DNA of 64,000 nt from assembly GCA_964016885.1 (NCBI GenBank), contig OZ024755.1, forward strand, positions 29,574,001 through 29,638,000, given 5' to 3'. A program made the translations under genes and the position numbers. Below, one piece after another: positions 7,411 to 49,340 of this stretch. The notes beneath the pieces were generated by a model. The model saw only the letters and a list, made by a program, of their open reading frames with translations, was not told the DNA's origin and ran no database searches. The first letter of the stretch is position 1; every line of letters begins with the position of its first letter. The DNA is from Eledone cirrhosa (taxonomy: Eukaryota).

Positions 7411-7602
7411 TAGGAACAAGTAAGACCCCGACGGCTGAGCTCAAGCCGTTTCGACGGCTAATTCTGTCAGAATCAGCCGTCGAAACGGCTTGAGCTCAGC
7501 CGTCGAGGTCTTACTTGTTCCTATTACCCACTCTACTACCCCAAGTATTGAGTACTTTGGTGCGTTATGGTCCACCTGGTTCCTTACCACATTTCCTTCG
7601 TT
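7411..7602 (+). mobile_element. Palindromic mini-element family A (~57-bp arm hairpin plus ~80-bp tail) in (TA)n
   Basis: Hairpin 7410-7524 plus tail TTACCCACTCTACTACC..CCACATTTCCTTCG; eight copies in the window. Confidence 0.9.
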
Positions 7603-7659
7603 ATATATATATATATATATATATATATATATATATATATATATATATATATATATATA

Positions 7660-8010
7660 TATACTTCTATATGTAAAAGTTCTATTTAAATTGTTGGGAT
7701 ACAACAAGCAAATATGTTTATAACTGATATAAAGCACTCAACAAATAATTGGAGTAAAAATACGATATTAACAAATGGAAACTATATTTATAAAACCATA
7801 TTTATTTCATTATACATATTTCACTATCCGGGAGCTTCCAACAGTAATGGTTGCATTCTTTAAGGGTATGTCAATATTTATTTATAAAACTGGTCTATAT
7901 TATATTTTATCTGATGGAAGCACACCATAATTTAACTTGGTGTCCTTGAAATATGTATAATGAAATAAATATGGTTTTATAAATATAGTTTCCATGTGTT
8001 AATATCGTAT
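7660..8010 (+). mobile_element. PLE-like mini-element family D with inverted arm and mutated HHR (CTGATGG at 7911-7917)
   Basis: 7761-7823 is the reverse complement of ~7947-8010; homologous to 48520-48700 and 52123-52262. Confidence 0.75.
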
Positions 8011-8257
8011 ATATATACTTCTATACTTTTCATATATATATATATATATATATATATATATATATATATATATATATATATATATATATTTATTAAAATA
8101 ACACATTAATATTTGCTCTACGGTTACTATATATTTGATATATATTTATCCTTATCGAGCCCTCTTTGGATTTTAGTCTTCAAATTTATTATTATTACTA
8201 TATATATATAAGCAAATAAATGATTTAAACTGAACTTTGATTGTTGTAATCTCTATA

Positions 8258-8424
8258 TAACTGCTCTGTAAAACAACCGATGTCATTACATTGAGCTATT
8301 TATCTTACTGGTAATAAGATAGTAATTAATTACTATCTTTCACTATTTAGGGTTTGTATAATAAATATATAACCATAAAAGGTTTTATTACATACATAAC
8401 CATAAATAGTATCCTTAATACTAT
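8258..8424. repeat. Dispersed repeat, inverted homolog at 16346-16515
   Basis: ATAACTGCTCTGTAAA..GAGCTATTTATCTTACTGGTAATAAGATAGT..TATCCTTAATACTA matches the reverse complement of 16346-16515. Confidence 0.8.
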
Positions 8425-11387
8425 ATATATATATATATATATATATATATATATAAATGTAAGTATGTGTGTATACGTACATACATATATGTATACAGAC
8501 GTACAGTAGCATGCATATATATATATATATATATATATATATATATATATATATATATATATATATATATATATATATATACATACAGGTACACATACAT
8601 ATATGCACGTATCAGTTTAGCGGACGCTTATTATAACGCCGCTTTGTTCGTTTGTAAACAAACGACTAAGAGTGAGAAATGAAATTTCGTTTTCATTTTA
8701 TTTCAACTTATATATATATATATATATATATATCCAATGTATTTTCATTACTTCTTGATTATTGCTACAAAAGATTTTACTAATATTCTGCTGGTGACGA
8801 CGTGTTTTGAAAAATGGGTGACAAGGAACGACGTGTATATATGTTGTTTACAAGTATACTTAGAATGTCTTCATAGTACATATTCAAACATGATTGACGC
8901 TAAGTTGATACGTTCAACAGATAATCTAGACGAAATAATTAAATATAGGAAACGAAAATAATAGTGTAGCGAAGATAAAATAATATATAATATATACAAA
9001 CACACGTACATATGTGTATGCATGTAGTACATATATATATATATATATATATATATATATATATATATATATATATATATATATATATATATATGGGTGT
9101 ATGTGTTTGTGTGTGGGCAAAACATAATAGAACAAACTAGATTTTACACACTTATTCCTACGCATACACGCCCACATACTCATACACATATATACATGTA
9201 TACATATATGTATATATATATATATTTATATATATGTGTGTGTGTGCGTGTATAAATATATATATATATGTGAATATAAATATGTTGTTGTCTTTATATA
9301 TATGTGTGTATATATATATATATATATATATATATGTGTGTGTGTATGTTATGTATATATATGTGTGTGTGTGTGTGTATGTATATATATATAGGTGTAT
9401 ATATATATATGAATATATATATATACATATGTGTGTGTGTGTGTGTGTATACACGTGTGTCTGTACATGTATACGTACATACATATATACGTACATACAT
9501 ATATTTATATATATATACATATTTATATATATATATATATATATAGAGAGAGAGAGAGAGAGAGAGAGAGAGAGAGAGAGAGAGAGAGAGAGAGAGATAC
9601 ATAGAGAGAGAGAGAGAGAGAGAGAGAGAGAGGGAGATAGAGATAGAGAGATAGATTTAGATAGAGATAAATGTATATGTGTGCGTCTGTGAGTGTATGG
9701 GTGTGGTGGTTGATGTGTGTTTTTATGTGTGTGTTTGTGATTTGTCTTTAATCATATTTTTCTCTTATTTTTCATTTTAGATGACTATATGTTTTGCCAT
9801 AATGCTTAAATGAATCATCTTAACAGGAATCTAATTTTAATGTACTTTTGCTATAAACCGATATTTTAAATATACATTAACACAATTTACATATGCATAG
9901 CATGCAACGACTCGAAGTATTCAATATATGAGAATATAATTGTATAAATTAAGTTTTAAATGTTGCTATTCTAAAAAATACACGTTGTGTATGATTTTCA
10001 AAATATTTCTTATGGTATTCGATACTTGCTGTAAACTTTCACCTCGTCACTGAATGTGTGTGGAATGACTGCATGGTAAGCAAACTTGAATTTCTTTATA
10101 GAATATTATTAAATTTTCATTCTGTCAAGCTGTTCATATTTCACTTACAGGGGAAATGTATCAAAGCTTCATCAAAGGATTTTTTAACGAATGAAGAAGC
10201 GTTATGACTATTAAAAAGGAATAACACATACGCTGCTGTATCATGCATTAGTGAGAAATCGGAATTTATTTCTCTACAAATATGTTTAGGTACTGGAATG
10301 TTTGATTATCATGTTTTTCTTCGGTTTTATTCTCAGGAGGTACATATTACGAGAGAAATTCTTCATAGTACATTAACACGCTAAAAATAGTTAATTTTCT
10401 TTCGAATCAATGCCAACATCTTAATCAAAGGTTGAATAAGGATGTTCTAGATAATTCTGAAAATACCCAACACACAAAACCTCGAATAATACCTTTGCTC
10501 TATCAATATTGATGTGAGAGTCAACATTATCTATGCTACATTCATTTAAAGAGATATATATTTCAAACTTTGCAACAGTTGTTATCGTGTAGTTAAAGGT
10601 GGTAAGTCGGTGCAGAGTATTCAATAAAGGAGCTTCCAAACTCGTAGGAGAAAGGGAAGGAGCAACTAAAACAAAGCTTTCTGCAGTAATTATCATCCCA
10701 TTATGTTATAGATGTATACACATACAAGTCCTTTGCATTGATTCAACTCAAGCAATCCAAGTACCCCGTTGTCATGTTGTCATATTAAACAAAAGAAGAA
10801 TTAAATCCGACAACTATGCAAGTAATTTCTTATTAACTAGCTGTTTAACTGTCATCCCCGACAAAGCCTAAACATTATGATTAAGGCCTTTTAATCATGG
10901 TTATCCCATTTCTTTTATGGTTAGTGACTGCAGTATTGAATATTTCCTTATTTTAGTTAAATCAATAGAATTAGATTGGACGTTCATTTAGCTTCTAAGC
11001 AGTTTGGGGGACAGAGTCGAGGTTACATATTTCAGATGGAGTAGTGTCAAAATCAATAGTAAGGTGAACCCACTGCTTCACTACAATATTTATGGTCCTT
11101 TAGGCTCTGAGTTTACATCCCACTGAGGGTAATTTCGCATTATCCTTATGAAGTCGACATGATAAAGTATAAGTAACGTACTGTAGTCGGTTTGGTTAAC
11201 TAATAACATAGGGATACTATGTAAGAGATAATATTTAATTGCCTGTCAATAAGTTCATTCATCGTCTAAATCCTATAAGGATTAACATTCTATGGTCAAT
11301 ACCCTCCATTTCCAGTCATGTCCTGCGGCTGGCTTAATCGACCACAAGTTCACATTAATTTGTGGTCTTGTGGCAACCAAGCCACAA

Positions 11388-11530
11388 TTATAGAGTTACG
11401 GCCCTTGCTATTCTGATTTCAAATCCCGCCGAGGTTAACTTTGCCTTTCATCTGTATGGGGTCGATAAAATAAAGTACCAGTAATGCTCTGGGTAATTGC
11501 TGGCCTTGTGCCAAAAGTAGAAACAATTAT
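11388..11530 (+). mobile_element. 5'-truncated tRNA-derived SINE
   Basis: B-box region, core and tail of the main SINE. Confidence 0.88.
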
Positions 11531-47778: not shown

Positions 47779-47785
47779 TAATAAT

Positions 47786-47859
47786 GCTGTGATATATATT
47801 TCAATGACGACACTGGCCACACTGTTCTGTGTGCGAGTGTCGTGACATCATCAGACAGC
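47786..47859 (-). ncRNA. Type-I hammerhead ribozyme motif
   Basis: Minus: gctgt-CTGATGA-tgtcacgacactcgcacac(agaaca)gtgtggccagtgtcgtcatt-GAAA-tatata-TC-acagc; AUC site, palindromic stem III. Confidence 0.75.
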
Positions 47860-48592
47860 TTGTTACATAATAAGGTTATGTTTCCGAGGCAATCCAAATT
47901 GAATCGACATGGGAACGGACGAAGTGTGTGCTTTTGGGTTCTTCATCCGTTCCCCTGTGAGTACCAAGTCACCCCCACCGGTCTGCGCAGGCGCATGTCC
48001 GAAGGAAGTTGACCATTAGCTACCGGAGATTTCAACGAAATTCGCTTATTCACTTCACCCTCTCAGCCAAACAATGACCCACTTAGACCTGTACCATAGT
48101 TTACTGCTATCCATCCCGACTTGGGCAGTCAGCCGAAAGCCAGAGGGGAGGGGAGAGTGTTAGTTTTTACAGGTCACAATACTGCCTCTCACCAAGCGTG
48201 GACAGTACGACTGACCATCAACTCCTGAGAGAAAATAAACTTAATTCTAGGTATCATGGTTTTACATTGGAAGTTATGAGTGAGAGCTGGAAATAAAAAT
48301 TAAAATCCTAAATCAAATATCAGAAATTATAAATTAAACAATTAAAAAATTAACAATTAGAAATTTTAAAATGTTTCAAGTGAGAATCCGGATTGAGGTG
48401 AGTAAAAAAATATATAGACTGAAGTGAGTAAATAATATGGAGAGAGATGTTTAAGTAAGAAGTTCTGAGAGGGGTTCTAATGTCACAGTTACTCTATCCA
48501 CATATTGTACGATATTACTGTTGGAAGCTTCCAACAGAAATGGTTGCATTCTTTAAGGGTTTGTCAATATTTATAAAACTGATCTATATTAT

Positions 48593-48655
48593 ATTTTATC
48601 TGATGAAAGCACACCATAATTTAACTTGGTGTCCTTGAAATATGTATAATGAAAT
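48593..48655 (+). ncRNA. Type-I hammerhead ribozyme motif (family D, intact core)
   Basis: attttat-CTGATGA-aagcacacca(taatttaact)tggtgtcctt-GAAA-tatgta-TA-atgaaat. Confidence 0.75.
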
Positions 48656-49152
48656 TAAATATGGTTTTATAAATATAGTTTCCATTTGTTAATATATCGT
48701 ATATATATATATATTCATTCATATATATATACATATATACATATATATTTATACACACACATATATATATATACATATATATGTATGTACATATATATAT
48801 ATACATATATATATATATATATATACATATATATTTATACACACACATATCTATATATACATATATACATATATATGTATACACACATATATATATACAT
48901 ATATATGTATACACACATATATATATACATATATAGGTATATACATATATATATATATATACACATATATGTATATATATATAGGTATATACATATATAT
49001 ATATATACACATATATGTATATATATATATAGGTATATACACATATATATATACACATATATGTATATACATATATAAATATATATATGTATAACCTTTG
49101 TTCGTACTGCCTCTCTGTTCTGTTCCCGTTCAATTTTTTACTATATATATAT

Positions 49153-49340
49153 AACGAAGGAAAAGTGGTAAGGAACCAGGTGGACCATAACGCACCAAAG
49201 TACTCAATACTTAGGGTAGTAGAGTGGGTAATAGGAACAAGTAAGACCCCGACGACTGAGCTCAAGCCCCCTCGACGGCTAATTCAGAATTAGCCGTCGA
49301 GGCGGCTTGAGCTCAGCCGTCGGGCTCTTACTTGTTCCTA
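49153..49340 (-). mobile_element. Palindromic family A copy
   Basis: Tail on the left, hairpin 49231-49340; GAAA>GAGG change mirrored on both arms. Confidence 0.9.

Follow-up and report, generated by a model that had tools for sequence, protein, structure and literature searches.

The genome of Eledone cirrhosa carries a large family of short palindromic repeats, eight of which lie within a 64,000-nt stretch of contig OZ024755.1 (positions 29,574,001 to 29,638,000; hereafter the window). An initial annotation of the window compared them to a hammerhead ribozyme folded back on itself and proposed the RNA of a Penelope-like element (PLE) or retrozyme as their source. Our observations suggest that these hairpins were made by dual priming on one RNA: a PLE reverse transcriptase (RT) would have made two complementary DNAs (cDNAs) from the same template, each running off its 5' end, and the two products would have been joined head to head. 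We put the probability of this reading at about 0.7. The PLE source was borne out, as the parent element encodes PLE protein motifs and the tail of the hairpins is continuous with its open reading frame (ORF). On these sequence features, we are nearly certain that the hairpins are short head-to-head (TA)n insertions of a 3.6-kb Hydra-clade PLE. Hairpin arms numbering about 10^5, which resemble miniature inverted-repeat transposable elements (MITEs) or microRNA precursors, would be run-off products of a retrotransposon.

Each window copy consists of an inverted repeat, whose arms measure 21-61 nt, and a tail of about 82 nt on one side, laid out as (TA)n, mirror arm, apex, arm, tail and (TA)n. 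Positions are numbered from the G of the GAAA motif of the arm, taken as 0, with the predicted ribozyme cut between C+22 and G+23. A 19-mer of the arm occurred 62,608 times in the 3.0-Gb genome, on which all genome-wide counts were made, compared to zero occurrences for the reversed control. In a sample of 99 evenly spaced 10-kb loci (loci are denoted L plus a number), we found 69 arms at up to five mismatches, 35 of them exact, which extrapolates to about 1.2 × 10^5 arms per genome. Although more than 90% of the roughly 10^5 arms are shorter than 150 nt, the same architecture was observed at all lengths up to 3.6 kb. The arms have two fixed 3' ends, at +42 and at about +122, each at a TA-like microhomology with the target. 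Furthermore, exactly one tail was present in 38 of 40 short hairpins (34 full and 4 partial), half of them being expected if each arm chose its end freely (p = 7 × 10^-10). Identical short hairpins in direct tandem were also seen in L234 (263-671) and L304, probably as a result of local duplication within (TA)n.

The parent was reached via copies whose tail does not end in TA. In two of these (L092 and L095), the tail continues into the ORF's beginning, while L096 retains unmirrored upstream sequence with CCCC-TTGATAA ahead of stem II. A search with this upstream part yielded 2,020 candidates, 40 of which were scored, and the motif was found in 28 of the 30 loci returned. The parent unit measures 3,629 nt and occurs in L133 as a partial tandem with an inverted truncated copy; tandem copies likewise show the tail running on into the ORF start. 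A partial tandem of the pseudo-long terminal repeat (pLTR), an inverted 5'-truncated copy and a one-sided tail were present in L133, L135 and L143. Hydra-clade PLEs are marked by an RWK-type motif, a change of DKG to DKT, a CxCx5C linker, a C-terminal GIY-YIG domain lacking CCHH and with CxxC and CxH around E and N, (TA)n insertion and a canonical pLTR hammerhead, according to the sections of PMC8557442 considered here. Natural ORF pieces of the family contain RLRWRTFF and SDKTGN, the linker after the RT reads CNCPDRSFF or CNCPDGSSC (L139 and L133), and the C-terminal GIY-YIG domain of the same two loci (VIYQC..YIG, CNLC, CKH) lacks CCHH. The copies are inserted in (TA)n, and the RT resembles by eye that of Hydra-1_Obim in the supplement of that study; the clade assignment rests on these motifs and on this by-eye comparison with the published RT alignment (PMC8557442, consulted in part). 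A hammerhead is predicted in the pLTR as well, though its core is of the U3-A8 type and its stem II is long. The reading frame is broken in every copy read. A homologue search returned 2,254 relatives of about 700 aa, most of them without a name, and three PLE pieces of the family and two homologues had no Pfam match at E 0.001.

A non-palindromic parent with a full hammerhead core, as the initial annotation had envisaged, therefore exists, but its core is TTGANAA rather than CTGANGA. Candidates with a canonical core were rejected: TGANGA directly before the arm gave no match, CTGANGA within 36 nt of the arm gave 48 heterogeneous matches, of which the 30 loci read proved to be chance junctions, and the loop of the window copy at 24153, examined as a possible route to the parent, turned out to be part of a different Hydra-type family. 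Neither terminal inverted repeats with a transposase, as expected of a DNA transposon, nor Helitron termini were found, the ends being unequal and the sequence continuous with the PLE ORF. This bears on the idea that the short hairpins amplify themselves, as a MITE-like DNA element or from a non-autonomous master RNA, which we consider very improbable. Twelve of the 30 best matches to the copy at 7411 share one apex, as this idea would predict, but those matches were picked for likeness, and junctions were diverse in unbiased samples. Self-amplification also fits poorly with ends that differ by one tail, with continuity into the PLE ORF and with an architecture that stays the same up to 3.6 kb.

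The predicted hammerhead and the ends of the arms

As initially proposed, a predicted hammerhead has its 3' half in the arm, and the reading of the arm as GAAA-CGGCT-TGAGCTC-AGCCG-TC-GGGGTC was accurate. Conversely, the strands GACGGCTAATTC..GAATTAGCCGTC taken for stem II are a product of the mirroring itself; the 5' strand of stem II in the parent reads G-NY-CGGCTATTT. Intact copies present, in order, stem I (ACCCC/GGGGT), TTGA-N-AA, a 9-bp stem II closed by G..C (9-10 bp among natural copies), a loop of about 33 nt, GAAA, a stem III of 5-6 bp, a palindromic loop and GUC. In standard hammerhead numbering, the parent contains every element of the type I core, namely Y3-U-G-A-N-R8-A9, GAAA, NUH, three helices and G10.1-C11.1. 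Position N7 varied among 47 intact copies (T 24, G 9, A 8, C 6) while the remainder of the core was invariant, and 94.7% of cells were paired across 18 copies. Exact 5' halves of the ribozyme numbered 5,178 genome-wide (369 + 4,809), about 8% of the arm count. The U3-A8 core is already known as a variant of PLE hammerheads (PMC4209133, in the sections considered here), and hammerhead screens built on CUGANGA miss the parent family. Three observations weigh against the prediction: a search of the intact parent against Rfam gave no match to a hammerhead family, no covariation above shuffles was detected among the 18 close copies, and the three-way hammerhead was the lowest-energy fold in only one of four copies folded. 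In all four folded copies (L103, L252-L281), GGAA pairs with TTCC to extend stem I, and the +42 end sits at the foot of this longer helix, so that the fold of the ribozyme may contribute to marking the start site there.

Arm ends at the cleavage site are found among the very short hairpins, of which the genome contains 1,026. Hand counting of the first 50 gave 22 hairpins collapsed on stem III and 28 others, and both arms ended at +23 in 16 of the latter. The stem III collapses probably stem from deletion between repeated 7-mers or from microhomology joining. In a controlled count limited to hairpins with 2-8 nt between the arms, both arms ended at +23 in 75 loci, compared to two loci at +24 and none at +22. 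One full tail was present in each of the 20 loci fetched from this class, and in many loci only 0-2 nt separate the arms. Of 100 ends, 61 had A as the first untemplated base, and inserts of the A..T type outnumbered those of the T..A type 11 to 1 among 50 listed (hand count), as would result from two cDNAs each running off the cut end. The window copy at 36999 belongs to this class. We consider it very likely, from the position of these ends, that the +23 cluster represents the 5' end left by hammerhead self-cleavage and that the ribozyme cuts in vivo. The 3' cleavage product would then be copied, and the arm ends, as an indirect but base-precise trace of this, would likely constitute a genomic record of a ribozyme working in living cells. 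In vivo evidence for PLE hammerheads was stated to be absent in the parts of PMC4209133 considered, and a point against our reading is that, in the lizard PLE, no RNA reads ended at the ribozyme cleavage site according to the sections consulted of PMC11167929.

Most arms extend further. A survey of 122 arms, which excluded matches close to search targets and the 10-kb loci L133-L152, placed 113 ends between 0 and -25, two between -26 and -119 and seven beyond -120. Genome-wide, 27,951 arms reached -18 and 4,796 reached -28, the latter count being near the 5,178 copies with a 5' core, and in 3,689 hairpins the junction has both arms reaching -18 or slightly beyond. The stop falls at the same place whether the arm has a tail (140 nt) or not (60 nt), indicating that it is set by position and not by length. 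The A at -18 lies within TCAGTC or TTAGTC, an initiator-like context, and a TATA-like TATTTA is located 29-31 nt upstream of it in 47 of 47 intact copies matched, a spacing kept in both subfamily groups. In L144, an arm with its start at -18 extends across the tail and into the ORF. Furthermore, untemplated bases before -18 showed a G:A ratio of 17:5 in 100 listed arms (hand count); reverse transcriptases can copy the RNA cap. These sequence features lead us to favor, with some reserve, the view that the main cluster (-10 to -25, with a cliff from -18 to -28) marks the transcript start of a promoter located inside stem and loop II of the ribozyme. A few bases may have been lost later at the junction. 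The absence of the ribozyme 5' core would thus reflect a template RNA whose start lay downstream of it, and not erasure by snap-back. Promoters inside PLE pLTRs are known (PMC2377424, consulted in part).

Four points speak against a transcript start. The commonest end is -14 (23 of 122) and not -18 (10 of 122), in part from a missing subfamily reference; the G excess is a weak cap signal (C:T of 17:5 vs 19:20 in the +23 class, p = 0.03, hand counts); the promoter was recognised by likeness to the initiator and TATA consensus motifs; and a strong RT stop in loop II would produce an identical cliff. Two cDNAs might accordingly have been primed as we propose while the main cluster reflects an RT block or a cleavage of the RNA within loop II of the folded ribozyme. 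An inner hairpin can arise in this loop, with its 3' strand at -21 to -14, and ends that span 15 nt with their mode at -14 suit such a block. However, nearly no arms are lost from -28 to -62, the stretch in which the other strands of the fold are located, and neither the conserved TATA-like and initiator-like spacing in both subfamily groups nor the weak extra-G signal at -19 is expected from a block, which we regard as improbable.

Origin of the head-to-head arrangement

Under dual priming, the PLE protein would cut both strands of a (TA)n target, after which one DNA end would prime at +42 and the other at +122 of the same RNA. Both cDNAs would then run off the nearby 5' end of the RNA, whether this stems from transcription or from the ribozyme cut; the run-off products would arise when priming takes place at the 5' copy of the two start sites. 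The ends would be joined either by a jump of the second RT onto the displaced first cDNA or by end joining, via 1-4 nt of microhomology or an untemplated A. Additional stretches may sometimes be captured during joining, as with the 32 nt from a second Hydra-type family in the copy at 24153 or the 136 nt of the family's own ORF in L235. End-to-end template jumps are known of reverse transcriptases. Twin priming of both target strands is, in our judgment, likely. In the sections considered of PMC11167929, a lizard PLE was found in vitro to have both target strands cut and extended, with two internal RNA start sites defining the tail, and its protein was predicted to be a dimer.

The lengths of the two arms bear on whether they derive from one cDNA or two. 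Across 38 short hairpins, the tail arm was longer than the tail-less arm in 13, shorter in 14 and equal in 11, and 12 of the 38 junctions showed 1-4 nt of microhomology. Among eight long one-tail pairs, from loci picked for having long arms, the tail arm was shorter in six, by 170 to about 1,900 nt (p = 0.29 vs even odds). This argues against a fold-back, in which a single cDNA primed at the tail end would run off or stall, turn on a few bases (not on stem II), copy itself and be trimmed at +42, and which allows no shorter tail arm at all; the tail arm was nonetheless shorter in 14 of 27 unequal short pairs as well as in six of the eight long ones. A variant of fold-back, self-priming on antisense RNA, was proposed for rotifer PLE palindromes (PMC3846280, consulted in part). 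Fold-back accounts for the microhomology at 12 of 38 junctions, for arms belonging to the same subfamily and for mirrored A-to-G changes. It is difficult to reconcile with the 0-2 nt between +23 arms in many loci, too short for a priming loop, with the 11-to-1 bias toward A..T inserts, as if two 3' ends had each gained an A, and with discordance in three of 11 informative hairpins bearing a GAGG variant, described below. We consider fold-back unlikely.

The initial annotation had favored a snap-back of the cDNA on the stem II hairpin, or gene conversion of the arms. The natural stem II, at 9-10 bp, could support such a fold and one junction of this kind exists, but it is the only one in the genome, compared to the 3,689 that join near -18, and only one of the 122 surveyed arms ends near the 5' strand of stem II. 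CpG transitions were scored in 96 of 107 hairpins (10 were dropped for indels or chimerism and one for length); 47 occurred on one arm and none on both, indicating that the arms age separately. With 0 of 47 transitions mirrored, gene conversion is not general, and snap-back or conversion is hardly credible as the origin of the family.

Variants shared by both arms were initially described as specific to individual copies. Those at 19.0k and 14.4k are subfamily markers common to many loci, whereas GAGG at 49.3k is indeed rare, and recurrent. A double change at A+2/A+3 was found in 44 arms, in 22 of which it is GG, giving GAGG; none of the 22 other arms has a listed partner with a double change. 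The GAGG survey covered 18 loci (17 fetched and the window copy at 49153), 11 of them informative and seven not (four solo arms, two with too short a partner, one ambiguous). The variant occurs across at least five subfamilies and was mirrored in eight of the 11 informative hairpins (hand count). Its recurrence as an A-to-G change in several subfamilies may reflect A-to-I editing of the template. Dual copying of one RNA has evidence to answer here: GAGG was unmirrored in three of the 11 informative hairpins, mirrored edits are equally expected from fold-back, central deletion after insertion, to which palindromes are prone, could blur arm lengths in short copies, and the long insertion L133 has two tails.

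Taken together, the steps of dual copying would lay out the whole Penelope cycle at base resolution: a promoter nested in a hammerhead, germline cutting by the U3-A8 ribozyme with copying of the 3' product, and a dimeric RT that copies one, sometimes ADAR-edited, RNA twice, the products being joined head to head. That every step holds has, in our estimation, slightly less than an even chance. The answers can be counted from DNA alone, and exact coordinates are available for the two start sites, the predicted cleavage site and the putative transcript start, which fall within 150 nt.

The eight copies of the window and neighbouring sequences

All eight copies were found where they had been annotated, at 7411, 14359, 17233, 18992, 24153 (-), 36999, 47113 and 49153 (-). 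The (TA)n borders were present on both sides, except at the left side of the copy at 47113, where the mirror arm is truncated. Nor does the GAAA arm occur in all eight, as the copy at 36999 lacks it and has its apex at the predicted cleavage site.

7410..7605, +, short insertion in head-to-head form: arm without tail at 7410-7466, arm with tail at 7468-7524, tail at 7525-7605; each arm reaches about -14
14360..14565, +, more diverged subfamily copy: arms 14360-14418 and 14424-14482, tail to about 14565
17231..17378, +, AAATAG-subfamily copy: tail-less arm longer (-22 vs -12); tail cut at 17378, where it joins another repeat
18991..19201, +, full copy whose arms reach about -20 to -25
24151..24394, -, full copy whose arms, at 24232-24292 and 24334-24394, each reach -18
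36998..37121, +, very short copy with a full tail: the two arms, separated by AAT, each stop at the predicted ribozyme cut (+23)
47112..47289, +, copy lacking the left (TA)n, its mirror arm truncated: the tail arm extends to -21
49150..49341, -, full copy: arms at 49231-49285 and 49287-49341, each with GAGG in place of GAAA

In the copy at 24153, the loop contains 32 nt (24305-24336) identical to the tail of the second Hydra-type family. This family (also in L032-L060 and L148-L152) shares 44% protein identity with the first and likewise forms inverted copies within (TA)n that bear a one-sided tail of about 100 nt. A hammerhead seems to be present here too, its core being the canonical CTGACGA and its stem II domain measuring about 95 nt. 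The tail of the copy at 17233 switches at 17379-17436 to a repeat, with relatives in L170 and L290, in which GAAAC precedes CTGATGA, the reverse of the usual order, and which may be a hammerhead of scrambled order.

An Rfam search over the window gave no hit at the gathering score among the matches listed (150 of 428), most being microRNA noise in TA repeats, and a general repeat search was dominated by microsatellites. Elsewhere in the window, the minus strand carries at 58036-61170 a long interspersed nuclear element (LINE), whose open frame spans 1,045 aa and encodes APE endonuclease and RT domains, and at 44406-46395 a broken LINE with an RT and C-terminal C2H2 zinc fingers, which we take from its motif to be RTE-like. 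A self-complementary simple repeat of about 2.2 kb occupies 61327-63517.

Comparison with known systems

Inverted pLTR copies with a one-sided tail, PLE hammerheads, the U3-A8 core and two start sites were all known before this work. Published studies are compared here on the sections consulted of each. Hydra-1_Obim, an example of the Hydra clade of C-terminal EN+ PLEs (PMC8557442), shares RW(K/R), DKT, CxCx5C, the absence of CCHH, (TA)n, a 3'-near hammerhead and an inverted 5'-truncated copy with a one-sided tail. The E. cirrhosa family differs from the Hydra elements of that study by its unit of 3.6 kb, compared to mostly less than 3 kb, and its tail of about 82 nt, compared to 30-40 nt. It also has a U3-A8 core with a stem II domain of about 55 nt, whereas Hydra-1_Obim is listed with a canonical core (PMC8557442), and it differs further by its mass of about 10^5 arms, over 90% of them below 150 nt.

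Poseidon_Ac (PMC11167929) has in common with our family two internal RT starts, double-strand cutting and extension, an AT-rich target and uncut RNA as the main template, and the sections consulted leave its inverted arm unexplained. In contrast, copies of the family described here end base-precisely at the cleavage site, and the target has TA microhomology in common with both ends. The Penelope elements of Adineta and Drosophila (PMC3846280, PMC2377424) share a head-to-head inverted copy, a one-sided tail and TATA/initiator-like pLTR motifs. Their palindromes were read as antisense self-priming, whereas arm lengths and junctions here favor two primed cDNAs on sense RNA. PLE hammerheads, among them the U3-A8 variant of Schistosoma Cercyon (PMC4209133), also have type I topology in the pLTR, U3-A8 covariation, a long helix II, a palindromic loop III and close opposite-strand pairs; a difference is the stem III of the family described here, which at 5-6 bp could let the ribozyme act as a monomer. 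Non-LTR retrozymes consist of non-coding tandem units with a full hammerhead in each (bioRxiv 10.64898/2026.07.22.740005, consulted in part), a description that does not fit short copies without a 5' core and a parent that encodes a protein.

The origin of inverted ends with a one-sided tail and in vivo cutting by PLE hammerheads are stated as open in the sections considered of PMC8557442, PMC4209133 and PMC11167929. The literature searched, with most subscription papers and bioRxiv supplements outside its scope, contained no account of cleavage-site-precise PLE ends or of a promoter inside a hammerhead. If one RNA is indeed copied twice, such double copying would be a general origin of inverted pLTRs with tails. 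A further precedent is twin priming of L1, in which an inversion results from priming by the second target strand on that same RNA. The cDNAs of L1 cover different parts of the RNA, whereas those proposed here overlap and would thereby produce a palindrome.

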